Below are positions 7,846 to 25,915 of a DNA stretch of 37,613 bases, piece after piece. How positions within the stretch are numbered: the first letter of the stretch is position 1; every line of letters begins with the position of its first letter. The notes under the pieces are model-generated. The model was not told the origin of the DNA. It was given only the letters and a program-made list of their open reading frames with translations, and made no database searches. The position numbers and the translations under genes are program-made. Origin of the DNA: a virus. The stretch spans positions 1 through 37,613 of IMG/VR virus record IMGVR_UViG_3300045988_014133; one strand, written 5' to 3'.

Positions 7846-8967
7846 CTACTTTTCCACAGATTTTGAGAACATTTCGCCCAATGCGGAAGCTAGTTTATCT
7901 TCTTCCTCTTTCTTCTCGAAGAGATGCGTATAAATTCCGAGTGTCGTTGAAACATTAGCGTGACCCATGCGCTTTGAAACGGTTGCGGGGTCAGCGCCCA
8001 TTGAAATGCAGATGGAAGCGTACGTGTGACGGAGAGCATGAAAGGTAATCGGTTCAAGTCCGATGCGCTCCATGTAACGACTCAATCTTTTGGCGCACTG
8101 TTCCGGGTGGAAAGCTTCACCATTTTGTTCTTTAATTAGGTAGTCCGAATCGGTCCACAACGGACCGAGCTTCAATTTTTGCTCTATGTGATGTTTTCGG
8201 AGAGCCTTCACATCACGAATAACTGGCGCCGGAAGGATGCACAAGCGTTCACCGGAGGACGTTTTGGTATCCTTCACGAATTCGTTTCCTATCCGGTGCA
8301 TATATCTAGTGCGCTTGATAAAGAATCTTCCATCATCCGGTATTTCATCTTCCAGTATCCCCATTATCTCCCCACGACGAAGAGAGCCGAAAAGAGCCAG
8401 CTCAAAACAGACCCTTTGGTCAAGTGGGATTTCGTCAAGGTGGGAACAGAACACGGTGAAGTCTTCCGGCGAAAGTATCTGAATTTCTTTTTTCTTGTTT
8501 GATGGAAGTATAACATCATGACATGGATTGCTTTTCAAGAGTTCCCAGTTAACCGCAATCGAACAGCAAAGGCGGAGGATGGAATAGGTATCTTTCACGG
8601 TTTTCGGGGATAAATTCACCGATAAATCATCTATCCACGCTTGAATGGTCCGAGGCGTTAATTTAAGCAAATCTAGCGTTCCTATGGTGGTATCAATCCT
8701 CTTAAGTGCAGCGTTATATCCGTAAATGGTATTTTGAGATTTGTTATTGATAACCTGATTCCATACGGCGCTACACATATCCGACACTGTTTTACATTGC
8801 GAGGACACGACGGAAATTGACTCAACCCACTTATCTATTTGAGCGTTAAGGTCCTTTTTCGATGTGGCATGAAACACTTTTGATTTCTGCTTTCTTTTCC
8901 CGGTATAGTCCGGCTCTAAGTCTACCCATACCCTATATTTATTCCGCTCTAACTGCTTGATATGCAT
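7846..8967 (-). CDS. int: Tyrosine recombinase / phage integrase
   Basis: The 373-aa protein has a catalytic region LRRGEI ... HALRHTYASICISMGADPATVSKRMGHANVSTTLGIYTHLF (R..HxxR..Y). It is adjacent to attP. Confidence 0.95.
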   Translation of the reverse strand: MHIKQLERNKYRVWVDLEPDYTGKRKQKSKVFHATSKKDLNAQIDKWVESISVVSSQCKTVSDMCSAVWNQVINNKSQNTIYGYNAALKRIDTTIGTLDLLKLTPRTIQAWIDDLSVNLSPKTVKDTYSILRLCCSIAVNWELLKSNPCHDVILPSNKKKEIQILSPEDFTVFCSHLDEIPLDQRVCFELALFGSLRRGEIMGILEDEIPDDGRFFIKRTRYMHRIGNEFVKDTKTSSGERLCILPAPVIRDVKALRKHHIEQKLKLGPLWTDSDYLIKEQNGEAFHPEQCAKRLSRYMERIGLEPITFHALRHTYASICISMGADPATVSKRMGHANVSTTLGIYTHLFEKKEEEDKLASALGEMFSKSVEK

Positions 8968-8971
8968 AACA

Positions 8972-9379
8972 TCACTTCCTTTGACCGACTATAAAATCAA
9001 GCTGCTTATCCATATAGTCAACTTCTGAATCGTCTAAGTTGGAGGCTTTTATCTTTGCGCAAAGGTCGTTAGATGAGCTTTGCATTTCGACTAAAGCCTT
9101 AAACTCGGGATTGTCGGAATCAAGAATATAGTCGATGTAATATTCCTTATTGAGTCCGTCCGGAATATCCGCTTCCGTGAACCCGGCGAGGTAAGCAGGG
9201 TTCACATCTAAAACCTGTGCAAATTTCGCAACCTTATCACGTGGAATATCTCGTTCCCCTTTTTCGATTTTATTGATAGTAGACCTAGAACTATAACCGA
9301 CAAGCCGCCCCAATTCTGCCTGTGATAATCCTAGCCGCTCTCTTTCTTTTTTTATTCTCTTGCCTATATTATCCATCAT
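8972..9379 (-). CDS. CI-like lysogeny repressor (XRE HTH)
   Basis: The HTH is LSQAELGRLVGYSSRSTINKIEKGERDIP. It lies upstream of int in the same orientation and diverges from the early lytic genes. Confidence 0.85.
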   Translation of the reverse strand: MMDNIGKRIKKERERLGLSQAELGRLVGYSSRSTINKIEKGERDIPRDKVAKFAQVLDVNPAYLAGFTEADIPDGLNKEYYIDYILDSDNPEFKALVEMQSSSNDLCAKIKASNLDDSEVDYMDKQLDFIVGQRK

Positions 9380-17766: not shown

Positions 17767-18816
17767 ATGAATATTGAATATGTCAAGACCGGAAGCGTAA
17801 AGCCATACGATAAAAACCCACGAAGAAATGATGATTCGGTAGAGTTTGTGGCGAATTCAATTAAAGAGTTCGGATTTCAGCAGCCTATTGTTGTTGACAA
17901 GGATATGGTTGTTATCGCCGGGCACACAAGACTTAAGGCGGCGAAAAAATTAAAGTTGAAAGAAGTCCCGGTGATAGTAGCTGACAACCTAACAGACGAA
18001 CAAGCAAAAGCCTATAGGCTTGCGGATAACAAGGTTTCGGAATCGTCTGAATGGGACTTTGAGCTGCTGGACGATGAGCTGAACCAAATTCTCAATATTG
18101 ATATGGATGATTTCGGATTCGACTTCACGGAAGATGAAGAAGATGAAGAAGATGAAGAGCCGGAAGAAAAACACAACGAAAGAGAACGGACCGGGAACGC
18201 TTACAACCTATCTGAATATGACCGGGTCAATGCGGTAGGCGACTATGATATTCCACGGCTGGACCCGGTAGATTATGCCCCAAAGGACTTGATACCGTTC
18301 AATTACATGTTAACGAGCAACGACTATGACAGCGGGGTACACTTTTACGTTGATGATTATCAATTCGAACGCATATGGAATTGTCCGGATGAGTACCTAG
18401 ATAAGATATCCAATTTCGACTGCATGTTAACGCCGGATTTCAGCTTGTATATGGAAATGCCTATTGCGATGCAGATATGGAACACGTACCGGAGCAGGCT
18501 TATTGGTCAGATGGCACAACGAAGGGGGATAACGGTTATCCCAACGGTCAGTTGGTGCAGAGACAACAGTTTTGACTTCTGCTTTGACGGGCTGCCGGAG
18601 AGAGCTACACTGTCCATCTCAACAATCGGAATCAAGAAAGAAGATTACAACTTTGGAGTGTGGAAGGATGGAATGGATGAAATGCTGCTGAGGTTGCAGC
18701 CGAAAAGGTTGTTGGTGTACGGTGGTAAAGTTCCATATGATTATGGCGATACGGAAGTAATTTATTATAAAAACAAGACAACCGAACGAATGAAACAGAA
18801 GGGAGATGTGGTATAA
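17767..18816 (+). CDS. ParB-like nuclease-domain protein fused to a DUF4417-like C-terminal domain
   Basis: The N-terminus KPYDKNPRRNDDSVEFVANSIKEFGFQQPIVV ... IAGHTRLKAAKKL is a ParB/Srx fold. An acidic linker follows. The C-terminus GVHFYVDDYQFERIWNCPDEY ... TPDFSLY is DUF4417-like. Confidence 0.75.
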   Translation: MNIEYVKTGSVKPYDKNPRRNDDSVEFVANSIKEFGFQQPIVVDKDMVVIAGHTRLKAAKKLKLKEVPVIVADNLTDEQAKAYRLADNKVSESSEWDFELLDDELNQILNIDMDDFGFDFTEDEEDEEDEEPEEKHNERERTGNAYNLSEYDRVNAVGDYDIPRLDPVDYAPKDLIPFNYMLTSNDYDSGVHFYVDDYQFERIWNCPDEYLDKISNFDCMLTPDFSLYMEMPIAMQIWNTYRSRLIGQMAQRRGITVIPTVSWCRDNSFDFCFDGLPERATLSISTIGIKKEDYNFGVWKDGMDEMLLRLQPKRLLVYGGKVPYDYGDTEVIYYKNKTTERMKQKGDVV

Positions 18817-20473: not shown

Positions 20474-20884
20474 ATGGCAAATGAAGAAAATCTAAAGCCG
20501 CCAACCACGAGCGAAGCACGAAAAAGAGGCAAAAAAGGCGGCGTCAAATCGGGTAAAGCACGAAAAGAGCGAAAGGCGATGAAAGAGACCGCCGAAATGA
20601 TTCTGGAGCTAACCCTCAAGGATGGAACAGTAACCGACCTTGAAGACATTCAGAGCATGGCGGCAGCCAATGGGAAGAATATCACGGTTCAGGACGCAAT
20701 CATCTTGAAGCAGGCGCAGAAGGCGCTGAAAGGTGATATCAGAGCGGCGGAATTCATCAGGGATACCAGCGGAAACAGACCGACCAACGAACAGAGAATG
20801 GATGTAGCCGTGGACAACGGATTCATCGAGGCACTGAACGCTGCAGTTGAGGAAGTGGAGCAATGTTCAAGTGGCAGCCACTAA
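20474..20884 (+). CDS. terS: Terminase small subunit
   Basis: It lies immediately upstream of and overlapping terL. It has a basic N-terminus (NLKPPTTSEARKRGKKGGVKSGKARKERK). Confidence 0.65.
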   Translation: MANEENLKPPTTSEARKRGKKGGVKSGKARKERKAMKETAEMILELTLKDGTVTDLEDIQSMAAANGKNITVQDAIILKQAQKALKGDIRAAEFIRDTSGNRPTNEQRMDVAVDNGFIEALNAAVEEVEQCSSGSH

Positions 20885-22122
20885 GCCCGAAACAGTTCAA
20901 CATCTTCTCATGGTGGAACAGCGGTAGCAAGTATTCCGATATGGACGGAATCATTGCGGATGGTTCCATCCGTTCCGGAAAGACCGTAGCGATGGGAACA
21001 AGCTTCATTATGTGGGCGATGGAATCATTCGAAGGGGAGCAGTTCGCCATATGTGGTAAGACATTAGGAGCGCTAAGAAGAAACGTGCTCTCACCGATGC
21101 AGAATGTTTTACCAGATATGGGCTATGAAATATCAGAGAGCCGCCTCGAAAACAAGTGGACCATTAGGCACGGCGACAACGTGAACACCTTCTACTTGTT
21201 CGGAGGTAAAGACGAAAGCTCGCAGAACCTTATTCAGGGCGTAACGCTTGCGGGGGTCCTATTCGACGAAGTGGCACTGATGCCGGAATCATTCGTGAAT
21301 CAGGCAACAGCACGTTGTTCTGTAGAGGGTTCTAAGTGGTGGTTCAACTGCAACCCTTCAACCCCGTTCCACTGGTTCAAGGTGAACTGGATAGACCGGA
21401 AGGAAGAAAAGAATCTTTTGTATCTGCATTTCGAATTGGACGACAACCGCAGCCTATCGGAGCATATCAAAAATAGATACCGGAGCATGTATCAAGGCGT
21501 GTTCTACAGGCGCTATATCCTCGGAGAGTGGGTAGCAGCGGAGGGCATTATCTATGATATGTTCAGTGAAGACAGGCACGTTACAAAAGAGAAATATAAG
21601 CCCGTGGGCGACGTTTACGTGTCGTGCGATTATGGAATACAGAATGCAACTGTTTTCCTTATGTGGGCGAAAATAAAAGGCATATGGACATGCATTCGTG
21701 AGTATTGCTATTCCGGGCGGGAAAACCTAAAGCAGAAAACGGATGCAGAATTTGTTCAAGACATGAAGATGTGGCTTGACGGCACGATTCCGAAAAGGAT
21801 TATCGTTGACCCGTCAGCCACTTCTTTTATTGCAGAACTCAGGAAGAATGGTTACACGGTCAAGCGTGGCATGAACGACGTGCTGGACGGAATACGGTAC
21901 ACGTCAACCGCACTTGGGAGAGGAGAACTGATGTTCGTTTCCGATTGCGTGAATACCATTCGAGAGTTCCACTCCTATATGTGGGATTTGAAGTCAGCGG
22001 ATGCCGGAGAGGATAGACCGCTGAAAGAGCACGACCACTGCATGGATGCGATGAGATATTTCACTTATACGATTATGAGACAAGAAAAAGTTAAAGTTAA
22101 GGGATTCAAAGAGGGAATCTAA
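20863..22122 (+). CDS. terL: Terminase large subunit (PBSX/Terminase_3-like)
   Basis: It has a Walker A motif (DGSIRSGKT) and a Walker B-like LFDEV. A C-terminal nuclease region follows, and the gene precedes the portal. Confidence 0.9.
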   Translation: MFKWQPLSPKQFNIFSWWNSGSKYSDMDGIIADGSIRSGKTVAMGTSFIMWAMESFEGEQFAICGKTLGALRRNVLSPMQNVLPDMGYEISESRLENKWTIRHGDNVNTFYLFGGKDESSQNLIQGVTLAGVLFDEVALMPESFVNQATARCSVEGSKWWFNCNPSTPFHWFKVNWIDRKEEKNLLYLHFELDDNRSLSEHIKNRYRSMYQGVFYRRYILGEWVAAEGIIYDMFSEDRHVTKEKYKPVGDVYVSCDYGIQNATVFLMWAKIKGIWTCIREYCYSGRENLKQKTDAEFVQDMKMWLDGTIPKRIIVDPSATSFIAELRKNGYTVKRGMNDVLDGIRYTSTALGRGELMFVSDCVNTIREFHSYMWDLKSADAGEDRPLKEHDHCMDAMRYFTYTIMRQEKVKVKGFKEGI

Positions 22123-23540
22123 TGCATACAAAAAGACCATACGAATTACCAAAGCCAATCACGGCGGACCCGTCAATACTGGAGCACATCACGCCTCAGT
22201 TAATTGAGGGGTACATCAATAAGCACGAGAGCAAATTCAAGCGCTATGAATACCTTGAAAACCTATACAAGGGGTTTCACGACGTATATAGACAGCCGGA
22301 AAAGGAGAATTGGAAGCCCGACAACAGACTGGCAGTTAACTTCCCTAGGTACATCACAGACACCTTCCTAGGCTATGCCTACGGCGTACCGATTAAGTGC
22401 ACAGCATCGGAAGACTCAGAGGATGAGCGGCTGGCAGAATTCTACCGCAATAACGAAATGAACGACCATGATTCAGAGATGGCGAAAATGTGCTGCATCT
22501 ATGGGCACGCATGGGAGTTCTTCTATCAGGACGAAGACACCAACACAAAAGTGGTCGCCTATAATCCGAAAGACCTTTTTTGTGTCGTCGATGATACGGT
22601 GCAGCGCCGGGCACTGATGATGATTCAGTACGGGCGGCACACGGTGGACGGCGTGAACAATGGCGTGCTTTACGGCATGGCAGCCACGGCAGACACGCTT
22701 TATTACTTTGACAACGGAAAAATCGTTGATAGGAAAGAGAACCCATACGGCTTAATCCCATGTGTCGAGTGGCGACTTAACGAGGAGCGCATCGGACTTT
22801 TTGAGGGAGTGGCTGGACTGGTGGAGACGTACAACAGGACACTGGGAGAGAAGGCAAATGATGTTGATGCTTTTGCAGAGGCTTATTTGGCTGTAATTGG
22901 GTCCGAGCTTGACGATGAAGACGTGTACCGCATTCGGGACAACCGAATCATTAACCTTTACGGCACGGATAACGCAAAGGATATTCTGGTTCAGTTCATG
23001 ACAAAACCAACGGCAGACGGAACGCAGGAAAATCTGCTGAACCGCCTTGAAAATCTGATATATCAGATATCTATGGTTGCGAACATCTCAGATGAACAGT
23101 TCGGAAACGCAAGCTCCGGTGTAGCTTTGGCTTATAAGTTGCAGGCGATGAGCAATCTTGCCGTGACATTTGACCGGAAGATAGAAAAGAGCCTAAGGAA
23201 GCGCTTCAAGATATGGTCAAGTCTATCAACCAACGTGGCTGACAGAGAGGTGTGGCGTGATATCGATATCAAGTTTACCCGGAATCTTCCAAAGAATCTG
23301 CAAGAGGAAGCACAGACCGCTTCACAGCTTGAAGGTATCGTGTCGAAGGAAACGCAGCTATCCGTGCTCTCCATCGTTCCGGACGTTAAGAAGGAAATTG
23401 AAAAGATGGAAGAGGAAGAAGAAGAGCAGATGCAGCAGTTGAGCATGTATCAGCAGACCATGGGGGCAGTAAATGGCGAAAACAACGCAGGAAATATTTC
23501 TGGCGAAAACGAAGGAGAACCGGGATTACTGGAGAAGTAG
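22122..23540 (+). CDS. Portal protein (SPP1 gp6-like)
   Basis: It is 472 aa and starts with a TAATG overlap on terL. The N-terminal pattern YINKHESKFKRYEYLENLYKG ... NRLAVNFPRYITDTFLGY matches the family, and the C-terminus is acidic. Confidence 0.9.
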   Translation: MHTKRPYELPKPITADPSILEHITPQLIEGYINKHESKFKRYEYLENLYKGFHDVYRQPEKENWKPDNRLAVNFPRYITDTFLGYAYGVPIKCTASEDSEDERLAEFYRNNEMNDHDSEMAKMCCIYGHAWEFFYQDEDTNTKVVAYNPKDLFCVVDDTVQRRALMMIQYGRHTVDGVNNGVLYGMAATADTLYYFDNGKIVDRKENPYGLIPCVEWRLNEERIGLFEGVAGLVETYNRTLGEKANDVDAFAEAYLAVIGSELDDEDVYRIRDNRIINLYGTDNAKDILVQFMTKPTADGTQENLLNRLENLIYQISMVANISDEQFGNASSGVALAYKLQAMSNLAVTFDRKIEKSLRKRFKIWSSLSTNVADREVWRDIDIKFTRNLPKNLQEEAQTASQLEGIVSKETQLSVLSIVPDVKKEIEKMEEEEEEQMQQLSMYQQTMGAVNGENNAGNISGENEGEPGLLEK

Positions 23541-25038
23541 AGAAGACCGACAGGCGGTTGTAAACGAGCATACGATGAAAAACATCGATGCCGAAATTCA
23601 GCAGATTTACGAGCGGATGGTCCCAGAAATTCAAAAGGAAATTGAATCGTTCTATCAGAGGTACGCCGATAAAGAGGGAATCAGCCTAGCGGAAGCCAAA
23701 AAGAGAGTGTCGAAGTTCGATGTAAAGGCGTTCGAGGCAAGGGCTGCAAAACTGGTTAAAGACCGTGATTTCAGCGATGAGGCAAACGAGCTGATGAGGC
23801 TCTACAATGCAACTATGCGGATTAATCGGCTGGAGCTTTTAAAAGCGGATATCGGCTTGCATATGATAGACGGATTCGACGACCTAGAGAAGCTGACCGG
23901 AGAAAAGCTGACCGAGGAAGCCGTGAAGGAGTTCGAACGGCAAGCGGGAATCTTAGGGAATGGCGTTAAAGGTGCATCCGAAAGAGCTAAAAGCCTAGTG
24001 GGGCAGTCTTTCATGAATGCCACATTCAGCGAGCGCATATGGAGCAATCAGGAAGCATTGCGAAATAAGCTATCCACGATACTCACAAAGGGCTTGATTG
24101 GTGGTAAGAGCTATCAAAGCCTAGCGGCGGAGATTCGGAAGGATTTCAGCGTATCGGCACGAGAAGCAATGAGACTGGTTCGAACTGAAATGGTCCGGGT
24201 GCAGACACAGGCTCAGATTGATTCGTACAAGGCGAACGGATGGGAAGAGTTCGAATTCCTAGCATACGGCACGGCATCATGTGAAATCTGCAACGCCCTA
24301 AACAAAAAGCATTTCAAGATATCGGATTTTCAACCGGCAGAGAATGCGCCACCTATGCATCCGAATTGCAGATGCCGGACGGCGCCATACGAGGATGAAG
24401 AAGAATATCAGAAATGGTTGGATTCGTTCGGAAATTCAGATGATAAATCAGAGTTCTTAGGACAAACGACGAGGATAACCAAAAAGAGTCGCCCAACCGA
24501 TAGAGATATTGTTGATAGGGAACTGGTAAATTCAAAAGCGTTTCATGACAAATTCGAAAACTTAACAGGAAGAAAGATGGTTGATGAAATCATTTATCAA
24601 GAAGCAATGAAGATTCTTGAACACAGAGATGGAACGAGACAAGAAGATTTGGTTGTGTTGGACAGAAGGACAGGAGCAGTGGTTACGAAAGTTACGGACT
24701 CAGAAGATGACGGAAAACTAGTACTTACGAAAGAGCAACTAGAAGCGATAGAATCCTATCCTAAAGAAATAGTGCTACTTCACAATCATCCGAACGGAAG
24801 CAGACCCTCTTATACCGATATTTTGAGACTAAAGGATAAAAACGTTTCGTCAGTTATTGCAGTTGGGCACGATGGCAGCGTATACGAAATATCTGGATTG
24901 AACGAAAATATTGATATTGAAAAAATATATGAAGAATCGTATAATTACTACAAGAAAATATATGACTCTAAAACCGCAAACATTCATGCTACAAATGAAG
25001 TATATGATTCGGGTGCGTTTACCGTAAAAAAGAGGTGA
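23473..25038 (+). CDS. Head morphogenesis protein (Mu F / SPP1 gp7 family) with a ~200-aa C-terminal RadC-like JAB/MPN extension
   Basis: MuF core motifs are RTEMVRVQTQAQ and APPMHPNCRCRTAPY. The C-terminal QEDLVVLDRRTGAVV ... LLHNHPNGSRPSYTD (nt 24781-24819) fits the JAMM E...HxH...SxxD motif. Confidence 0.85.
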   Translation: MAKTTQEIFLAKTKENRDYWRSREDRQAVVNEHTMKNIDAEIQQIYERMVPEIQKEIESFYQRYADKEGISLAEAKKRVSKFDVKAFEARAAKLVKDRDFSDEANELMRLYNATMRINRLELLKADIGLHMIDGFDDLEKLTGEKLTEEAVKEFERQAGILGNGVKGASERAKSLVGQSFMNATFSERIWSNQEALRNKLSTILTKGLIGGKSYQSLAAEIRKDFSVSAREAMRLVRTEMVRVQTQAQIDSYKANGWEEFEFLAYGTASCEICNALNKKHFKISDFQPAENAPPMHPNCRCRTAPYEDEEEYQKWLDSFGNSDDKSEFLGQTTRITKKSRPTDRDIVDRELVNSKAFHDKFENLTGRKMVDEIIYQEAMKILEHRDGTRQEDLVVLDRRTGAVVTKVTDSEDDGKLVLTKEQLEAIESYPKEIVLLHNHPNGSRPSYTDILRLKDKNVSSVIAVGHDGSVYEISGLNENIDIEKIYEESYNYYKKIYDSKTANIHATNEVYDSGAFTVKKR

Positions 25039-25042
25039 TGAT

Positions 25043-25198
25043 ATGGAAATTAACGAAAAGGGAAAGTTCACATATATGGACGATTCCGTGGATATTGGAA
25101 AAGAGGCGCCGCCGATACCAGAAGAAAATCGACAATTTCATGAACAGGTAAAGAAAAAGATAAGAGAGAAGTATTTAACTAAAGCACCTACGGTCTAG
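25043..25198 (+). CDS. Small hypothetical protein (51 aa) downstream of the MuF-JAB gene, below the ORF-track cutoff
   Basis: AGAGG lies 7 nt before the ATG. The protein is MEINEKGKFTYMDDSVDIGKEAPPIPEENRQFHEQVKKKIREKYLTKAPTV. Its stop sits inside the terminator stem. Confidence 0.45.
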   Translation: MEINEKGKFTYMDDSVDIGKEAPPIPEENRQFHEQVKKKIREKYLTKAPTV

Positions 25199-25208
25199 GT
25201 GCTTTTTT
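25183..25208 (+). terminator. Rho-independent terminator
   Basis: The stem AGCACCTA / TAGGTGCT has 8 bp and the loop CGGTC. It is followed by a T-run. Confidence 0.8.
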
Positions 25209-25366
25209 AGTACACGAAATGCAAGCTTAATAATTATACCTTTGAAGAAAAATCGCTCATTATAGGGTGATTTTTTATATACCCTTTTTCGGGTGTGTCC
25301 AAGCATTTACGACATTAAACTGTATGGAATATCAAGCATTGCGATGTAAAACACATGGAGGAAATT

Positions 25367-25915
25367 ATGGCAGAAGAAATGAACAATCAGAACACAAGCG
25401 CAAACACTGAACCGAAAACCGAGCCGAACACTCAGACCGAGCCGAAAGGTGGAGCTGAGCCGGAAAAGAAGTATTCGGATGAAGACCTCGATAAAATCAT
25501 CGGTCAGAAGTACGCAAAATGGAGCGAAAAAACCGATAAAGCTATCGAGGATGCCAAAGCGGAGGCGGTCAAGCTGGCGAAAATGAACGCAGAGCAGAAA
25601 GCCGCCTATGAATCAGAGCAGAAGGACCTCAAAATTGCGGAAATGGAAGCACAGCTGCAGAAAATCGCACTGGGCAAGGTTGCCGGTGAGATTCTCAAGG
25701 AGCAGGGCATGGATGCTACACAGGACATTCTGGACATGGTCGTAGGCACAACCGCAGAGGACACAAAAGCACAGGTGGAAGCGTTCGTGAAGCTGGTCAA
25801 TGCACAGGTGGAAATCCGAGAAAGACAGAGGGCGACAGGTACCACCCCGAAATCTTACACCGGGTCGGAACCGCTTAGTGAAATTGAACAGCGGATTGCA
25901 AAGTACAGGAAGTAA
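25367..25915 (+). CDS. Capsid scaffolding protein (DUF4355-like)
   Basis: GGAGG lies 5 nt before ATG 25367. It is an acidic, helical, coiled-coil protein (KYSDEDLDKIIGQKYAKWSEK ... AEMEAQLQK) directly upstream of the major capsid gene. Confidence 0.8.
   Translation: MAEEMNNQNTSANTEPKTEPNTQTEPKGGAEPEKKYSDEDLDKIIGQKYAKWSEKTDKAIEDAKAEAVKLAKMNAEQKAAYESEQKDLKIAEMEAQLQKIALGKVAGEILKEQGMDATQDILDMVVGTTAEDTKAQVEAFVKLVNAQVEIRERQRATGTTPKSYTGSEPLSEIEQRIAKYRK

Follow-up and report, generated by a model that had tools for sequence, protein, structure and literature searches.

A JAB-like domain on a phage MuF head protein, in an exchangeable cassette with a small conserved partner

In a virus genome from IMG/VR (record IMGVR_UViG_3300045988_014133, positions 1 to 37,613; "the window" below means this whole stretch of 37,613 nucleotides), the gene downstream of the portal gene encodes a MuF/gp7 head protein that continues into a C-terminal domain of the JAB superfamily. 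This domain belongs to a cassette that is replaced by unrelated cassettes in sibling phages, and in every related locus examined it is followed by a very small open reading frame (ORF) whose product carries a shared Asp-Asp (DD) motif. A promoter-like element inside the coding sequence of the domain and a hairpin terminator after the small ORF recur in many relatives. We consider it probable that the fusion is a virion-delivered, MuF-carried zinc hydrolase of the JAB type, which would be held in check in the producing cell or lysogen by its cognate DD mini-protein.

MuF toxins are abundant in the prophages of gut Firmicutes, and few of their C-terminal domains have been characterised. The analysis described here defines a large unannotated family, with its catalytic signature, its cognate mini-protein and its exact cassette boundaries, whose members are now labelled only as "minor capsid protein".

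The fusion gene and its C-terminal domain

The main features of the gene are as follows.

23473..25038, plus strand: MuF-JAB-like fusion gene, 521 aa in the ORF list; the alternative start at 23575 gives 487 aa
24067..24381, plus strand: MuF/gp7 core domain, residues 199-303 (PF04233, TIGR01641)
24526..25035, plus strand: core of the JAB-like C-terminal domain, residues 352-521 (structure model, PDB matches, always C-terminal)
24643..24819, plus strand: predicted catalytic and metal-site residues (each kept in 146-149 of the 150 representatives)
24643-24645, plus strand: E391
24781-24789, plus strand: H437-N-H439
24808-24810, plus strand: S446
24817-24819, plus strand: D449
24868-24870, plus strand: additional conserved H466 (141 of 150 representatives)

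An original prediction, made from the sequence alone, described the ORF after the portal gene as having a MuF/gp7 core. Indeed, the ORF lies directly 3' of the portal gene, and its product matches both Phage_Mu_F in Pfam (PF04233; residues 199-303, E=2.5e-19) and the gp7 model TIGR01641 (residues 202-305), while phrog_115, "minor head protein", spans residues 12-496 (E=9.5e-110). The sequence strings quoted in that prediction are present, and HNHPNGSRPSYTD corresponds exactly to nucleotides 24781-24819. The start of the gene is ambiguous. The long form, beginning at 23473, overlaps the portal gene by 68 nucleotides, and gene callers begin near-identical homologues at the Met equivalent to 23575. 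In favour of 23473, alignments to PHROG profiles begin at residue 12-18 of the long form.

The region beyond the MuF core had been proposed to hold a JAB-type metal site, and conservation, structure prediction and structure comparison all agree with this assignment. Conservation was counted over 150 representatives sharing no more than 50% identity. E391 is kept in 149 of these, H437 in 148, H439 in 147, and S446 and D449 in 146 each. N438 (143 representatives), H466 and G468 each fall within 141-144 of 150, P440 is found in 127, and the P445-S446-x-x-D449 element is conserved. Because the E...HxH...S..D motif is nearly invariant among such diverse representatives, it is not a chance match.

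A model of the domain core computed with AlphaFold2 from an alignment of 56 sequences has a mean predicted local distance difference test score of 95.9 and a predicted template-modelling (TM) score of 0.90. It replaced an earlier model (16 sequences, linker included) that performed less well in Foldseek. In this structure a strand ends with HxH and the following helix opens with S..D, which is the arrangement of JAMM proteins. The top eight Foldseek matches in the PDB are all JAMM/MPN proteins (BRCC36, PfJAMM1 with a probability of 0.97, AfJAMM and Rpn11 among them), and nucleotide and nucleic-acid deaminases of the same fold come after these. In BFVD, a collection of predicted viral structures, the best matches are "minor capsid proteins" of 500-630 aa from uncultured siphoviruses, with RadC, MPN, JAB and K-like tail proteins lower in the list.

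The original prediction also called the domain RadC-like, a description that is only moderately supported. The RadC-type HNHP..PSxxD signature is present, and alignment with hhalign to four Escherichia coli RadC paralogues gave probabilities of 61%, 72% and 89%, the confident core spanning only 24-26 columns. At a relaxed threshold the domain is colinear with these paralogues over 94-104 columns, and the catalytic Glu residues are then aligned. However, the domain scores below the Pfam cut-offs (see below), its NCBIfam RadC score is 14.7 bits against a 180-bit cut-off, and the top 50 Foldseek matches do not include 2qlc, a solved structure of RadC. Sequence searches with phmmer and hmmsearch against PDB sequences returned only chance beta-lactamase matches and a 25-residue match to the RadC motif (E=0.63). 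Like RadC-like JAB proteins (YicR of E. coli; the prophage proteins YkfG, YeeS and LfgB/YfjY; PDB 2qlc), the domain has HNHP(S/N)G...PSxxD, a colinear catalytic Glu, a strand leading to HNH, a helix beginning with S..D, a terminal hairpin and an association with mobile elements. Unlike them, it has an HxH-to-S loop that is one residue shorter, as well as its own extra conserved H466 and "EHRDG" motifs. We conclude that it is a divergent member of the JAB superfamily with a RadC-type signature, and that membership of the RadC clade is unproven.

The family is large and little annotated. A word-indexed search found 15 close relatives and a profile search 878, and an exhaustive profile search of 1.84 billion cluster representatives yielded 1146 clusters (at 50% identity) with E<=1e-10, of which 153 had E<=1e-30. 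In 265 of 265 retrieved proteins the domain stands at the extreme C terminus. Only five isolated phages were found to carry it by tblastn, namely Anaerostipes AC844P1-3, Streptococcus MissF and one "Bacteriophage sp.", and megablast of the locus against 50,697 phage records gave no match. Neither the domain nor the small ORF has a model in Pfam, NCBIfam or PHROGs.

Some relatives have Phage_min_cap2 in place of Phage_Mu_F as the N-terminal carrier. Four longer relatives of 786-858 aa (P0037, P0066, P0076 and P0082) have a middle region between the MuF part and the JAB-like domain, and in two of them (P0076 and P0082) this region gives sub-threshold HExxH metallopeptidase matches. These proteins may carry two tandem effector domains on one head protein. 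No trafficking domains of non-phage type were seen on the longer homologues, which contain only MuF, Phage_min_cap2 and the inserted HExxH-like domain.

Cassette exchange and the 51-codon partner

Two features describe the exchanged unit and the small gene within it.

24435..25216, plus strand: exchangeable cassette consisting of linker, JAB-like domain, small ORF and terminator (sibling-phage DNA breakpoints, GC content)
25043..25198, plus strand: 51-codon partner ORF, a putative immunity or inhibitor gene with a DD motif (55 of 55 loci, alignment, co-divergence)

The cassette boundaries are set by two siblings, L048 and L049, whose DNA is 94% identical to the window from the terminase gene to 24434/24435. 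Identity returns at 25217 and extends across the scaffold and capsid genes, while the sequence between the breakpoints is unrelated, and each exchanged block encodes its own unrelated downstream ORF of 87 or 91 aa. The GC content is ~0.36 across the cassette versus ~0.48 in its flanks. More broadly, at least eight unrelated C termini follow the sequence "...YQKWLDSFG" on MuF N termini that are 94-99% identical. These comprise the JAB-like domain, a second type with an HNHP motif, three HExxH-like types, a papain-fold glutamine deamidase (Gln_amidase, PF15644, E=7e-9) and two unknown folds. Exchange of C termini on a shared N terminus is the hallmark of MuF polymorphic toxins, and the locus belongs in this class. 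The swapping among sibling phages thus bears out the comparison, made in the original prediction, with the MuF toxin-immunity modules of temperate Firmicutes phages.

The second HNHP type, with the motif YSYHNHPPE..FSFSGED (P0265, P0266 and P0278-P0280; L049 3001-4681), represents another HNHP...S..(E)D arrangement and carries its own downstream ORF of 91 aa. It shows no detectable hidden Markov model similarity to the JAB-like domain studied here, and may represent another JAB-like type of toxin that lacks annotation. In two more cassette types, P0269/P0272 and P0270, there is no recognisable domain.

The domain also occurs in free-standing copies, each with a small ORF, in arrays beside cassettes that pair an ADP-ribosyltransferase or Ntox50 with an ORF. 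One such array (L001 4039-6519, also present in L002-L004) lies a few kilobases upstream of a Phage_min_cap2 gene. Its three cassettes pair ADPrib_exo_Tox (221 aa) with an ORF of 62 aa, the JAB-like domain (174 aa) with one of 64 aa, and Ntox50 (98 aa) with another of 64 aa. The array has the look of a store, within a prophage, of orphan modules for toxin and immunity.

The 51-codon ORF begins 4 nucleotides after the stop codon of the fusion gene, and a Shine-Dalgarno sequence, AGAGGTG, is positioned 5 nucleotides upstream of it. Related loci were collected in two sets: 41 lie on 36 contigs of IMG/VR, in 2 isolated phages and on 3 contigs from metagenomes, and a further 14 are independent loci in bacterial genomes. 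In all 55, an ORF of 38-67 aa follows the domain, at a spacing of -38 to +14 nucleotides with one case at +72. An alignment of 22 diverse partners reveals a short hydrophobic stretch followed by Asp-Asp, in which D13 is invariant and D14 is present in at least 90%. A distant subtype of the JAB-like domain (~28% identity) is paired with a distinct partner type, "YYDGPxVDSGR".

The closest relative with the same cassette, L047, served as the reference for comparing protein identities. The window and L047 are 97.6% identical in the MuF part and 93.5% identical over residues 352-459 of the JAB-like domain, versus 61.3% over residues 460-521 and 23 of 51 positions in the small ORF. The small protein has therefore diverged together with the domain's last two helices, as would be expected of an interacting toxin-immunity pair. 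This co-divergence, the occurrence in all 55 loci and the shared DD motif sustain the earlier proposal that the 51-codon ORF is the partner of the domain. When window DNA 24850-25269 is compared with L047 3450-3880, identity falls from ~94% to 59-69%, and the drop affects nothing but the final ~60 codons of the domain together with the small ORF and terminator. Such a pattern points to a sub-cassette exchange or to accelerated co-evolution of the region that determines immunity specificity.

A promoter-like element and two terminator-like hairpins

Three further features lie inside the cassette or just beyond it.

24917..24945, plus strand: promoter-like element TTGAAA-17-TATAAT inside the JAB-like coding sequence (11 of 12 positions match; recurrence)
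25181..25208, plus strand: intrinsic terminator of the cassette, a hairpin at 25181-25205 with a T-run to 25208; its stem includes the small ORF's stop codon
25247..25276, plus strand: second hairpin with a U-rich 3' arm (free energy -12.5 kcal/mol, z=-3.5), upstream of the scaffold gene (25355) in the backbone that the siblings share

The promoter-like element is found ~100 nucleotides upstream of the small ORF. By the criterion of a score of 10 or more out of 12.5 at the corresponding position, the element recurs in 58% of 33 non-redundant viral loci and in 12 of the 14 hold-out genome loci, versus 2.5% of control windows and 5.7% of AT-rich controls. In the window's subtype, the conserved Tyr-Asn of the domain is encoded by TAT AAT in 15 of 15 non-redundant loci. 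From the genes' own codon usage, the joint chance of this outcome is ~10^-4.6 if the lineages are assumed to be independent.

The strong terminator that the original prediction assigned to the gene pair is well supported. Folded directly, the hairpin has a free energy of -16.1 kcal/mol (z=-4.6), and none of 200 shuffled sequences is as stable. A consensus terminator scanner did not call it, probably because the stem can extend into the T-run. Among 35 viral loci, 17 have a hairpin and T-run directly after the small ORF, and almost all of these 17 belong to the window's subtype; the genome loci have them in 11 of 14 cases, compared to 1.1% of controls. In L047 the terminator is retained via a wobble substitution.

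The second hairpin, by comparison, is located in backbone sequence common to all the sibling phages, including those with other cassettes, ~80 nucleotides upstream of the scaffold gene. Two tandem terminator-like structures thus stand between the MuF cassette and the genes for scaffold and capsid, and expression of the latter would therefore call for antitermination or a separate downstream late promoter. To judge from sequence features, the promoter-like element, the small ORF and the terminator may together give rise to an immunity transcript that is made autonomously in lysogens.

In colicin-type operons, a constitutive immunity promoter is located within the toxin coding sequence and the unit has its own terminator; the immunity protein is made without the toxin. 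The locus described here resembles such operons in the placement of a putative immunity promoter inside the toxin gene, as indicated in our case by sequence conservation. It differs from them in that the presumed toxin is encoded by a structural gene of the phage, within a late operon. An embedded promoter or private terminator is not mentioned in the MuF toxin literature that we found, and the words "promoter" and "terminator" are absent from Jamet et al. (PMC5576092). This architecture is the most interesting point added here. It offers a testable route to immunity in lysogens when the toxin gene is part of a late structural operon: a promoter within the toxin ORF, combined with a private terminator.

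Proposed function, related systems and phage context

In the arrangement that we think probable, the MuF/gp7 part, at the conserved N terminus, would serve as the vehicle. If it acts as SPP1 gp7 does, it would bind the portal, be packaged in a few copies and exit the capsid with the DNA. The C-terminal 170 residues would constitute an exchangeable zinc-dependent hydrolase of JAB fold that is delivered into the infected cell. The 51-aa protein would be the cognate inhibitor, or immunity protein, of this domain; it probably binds the last two helices, and its invariant Asp-Asp may block the metal site. A sigma-A-type promoter within the toxin gene and a terminator after the small ORF would create a self-contained immunity transcript, which could be made from a repressed prophage without readthrough into the scaffold and capsid genes. 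We propose that lysogens would therefore be protected from the toxin of sibling virions.

Several points weigh against this reading. The Pfam matches of the domain align only the motif region and fall short of their cut-offs: Prok-JAB (E=0.017) scores 15.4-16.9 bits versus a cut-off of 25, and RadC (E=0.079) scores 13.3-14.5 bits versus 22.1. Likewise, the Foldseek E-values in the PDB are weak (0.004-0.07), with TM scores of about 0.5 when normalised to the target. Recurrence of the promoter-like element may partly be a by-product of protein conservation, because its hexamers fall on the conserved residues I-E-K x5 Y-N in an AT-rich gene, and the codon-choice test takes lineages as independent. 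The distant subtype (L027-L043) for the most part lacks both TATAAT and a detected terminator. Also, "toxin" may have to be understood as a host-modulating effector, because the few molecules carried per virion may not kill a cell.

With regard to substrate, peptide bonds are slightly favoured, with nucleic acid as the main alternative, because the RadC-like JAB protein LfgB has been reported as a protease that degrades MqsA and casein (PMC10846083). Within the same MuF toxin-immunity architecture, it is possible, if somewhat unlikely, that the domain is a nuclease or another nucleic-acid- or nucleotide-processing enzyme rather than a peptidase. Its RadC-type motif and its colinear alignment with RadC paralogues (89% probability) are consistent with this idea, as are the deaminases that form the next-best structural matches after JAMM proteins. 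Moreover, nuclease activity or nucleic-acid processing has been predicted for the RadC and Tox-JAB clades by Aravind's group (PMC3482391, PMC5512222), and more than half of MuF toxins are nucleases (PMC5576092). However, LfgB is the only RadC-like JAB protein with a reported activity in the literature that we found, and nuclease activity of a JAB protein is not reported there. The fusion of the domain after an HExxH peptidase-like domain in some relatives is neutral on this question. A putative built-in inhibitor makes the system a tractable one for deciding whether RadC-like JAB domains are peptidases or nucleases.

There is a small chance that the JAB-like enzyme is a specific early effector and not a killer, with the DD mini-protein as an antidote, encoded by the prophage, that labels cells as "self" in a phage-borne kin-recognition system. 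Such an effector could, for example, be a protease, deconjugating or regulatory in action, that knocks out a host defence or tilts the choice between lytic and lysogenic growth. Constitutive expression of the DD mini-protein would then come from the promoter embedded in the gene for the enzyme itself.

The original prediction raised, as a speculation, the idea that the injected domain is a counter-defence isopeptidase that removes the ubiquitin-like (Ubl) conjugates of Bil or of type II cyclic-oligonucleotide-based antiphage signalling systems (CBASS). The JAB fold with an intact JAMM-type site would suit this role, the closest solved structures are deubiquitinases or Ubl-processing enzymes, and MuF fusions are thought to deliver early effectors (PMC5512222). 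We nonetheless regard the idea as very improbable. The signature is the RadC-like HNHP...PSxxD and not the H[ST]H of Ubl-specific JAMM proteins, and the toxin and RadC JAB clades have been argued to lack the groove for a Ubl tail (Zhang et al., PMC3482391). The gene context is not of the Cap3 or BilC type: the immediate neighbours are the portal gene, the small ORF and the scaffold gene, and Ubl, E1, E2 and CD-NTase domains are absent from the 14 window ORFs scanned against Pfam. Furthermore, the domain needs a dedicated, co-evolving small partner, and it swaps with deamidase, HExxH-type and other cassettes in otherwise identical phages, which is a poor fit to a single target. Because unrelated domains interchange, each with its own small ORF, the generic logic of toxin and immunity is preferred over a dedicated deconjugase.

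Finally, that the domain is a morphogenetic enzyme, such as a protease for head maturation or scaffold processing in the procapsid, with the small ORF encoding an assembly factor, is extremely improbable and was rejected: despite the position between portal and scaffold genes and one PHROG match labelled "head maturation protease", this label covers only the MuF part (residues 18-365), free-standing copies of the domain reside in toxin-cassette arrays away from head genes, and the domain is not needed for assembly, because siblings with ~94% identical portal, scaffold and capsid genes carry unrelated domains.

The favoured toxin-immunity reading places the locus in a known class of systems, of which it is a common but unannotated member. 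MuF toxins with small downstream immunity ORFs were described by Jamet et al. in 2017 (PMC5576092) and foreshadowed by Zhang et al. in 2012 (PMC3482391), and one pair, Apk2/IapK, has been validated experimentally (PMC12226406). As in these systems, an N-terminal MuF/gp7 domain is encoded in the head module beside the portal gene of a temperate Firmicutes phage, and a conserved N terminus is joined to a variable C-terminal effector, with a small ORF (<150 aa) immediately downstream. The partner here is unusually small (38-67 aa), and the embedded promoter and cassette-borne terminator are not discussed by Jamet et al. From the main text of that paper and the supplements searched, a JAB-like C terminus is absent and neither the domain family nor its mini-partner is mentioned; both are also without a Pfam, NCBIfam or annotated PHROG description. 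Our literature search found no description of a MuF-JAB fusion.

JAB toxin domains are known from other polymorphic toxin families (PMC3482391). Tox-JAB-1 and Tox-JAB-2 (DUF4329) of RHS, type VI and type VII secretion toxins share with our domain the JAB/deaminase fold, the E, HxH, S and D site, the C-terminal toxin position and a paired immunity gene (Zhang et al. 2012, PMC3482391). In contrast to them, the fusion protein and 16 homologues have no Pfam match to either family at E<=1. The carrier is MuF, while theirs is RHS, PAAR or WXG, and the putative immunity protein is a small DD protein instead of Imm65 or Imm-NTF2-2.

The window as a whole is from a temperate siphophage, whose host is probably of the Clostridia or Lachnospiraceae type. 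Other annotated genes include the following.

7846..8967, minus strand: integrase
8972..9379, minus strand: CI-like helix-turn-helix repressor
20863..22122, plus strand: large terminase (TerL)
22122..23540, plus strand: SPP1-type portal (PF05133, E=3e-110)
25355..25915, plus strand: DUF4355 scaffold

The fusion gene sits in the head and packaging module of this phage, which carries both the integrase and the repressor. The late genes are ordered TerL, portal, MuF fusion ORF, 51-codon ORF, scaffold, capsid protein and tail genes. Scans of the whole window for Rfam families and tRNA genes found none. In the early region, a protein of 349 aa (17767-18816) combines ParB_N (E=3e-10) with DUF4417 (E=3e-70). 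Upstream of the integrase gene, an ORF of 723 aa (64-2235) is without a Pfam match at E<=0.001, and could represent either cargo or host DNA next to the prophage.

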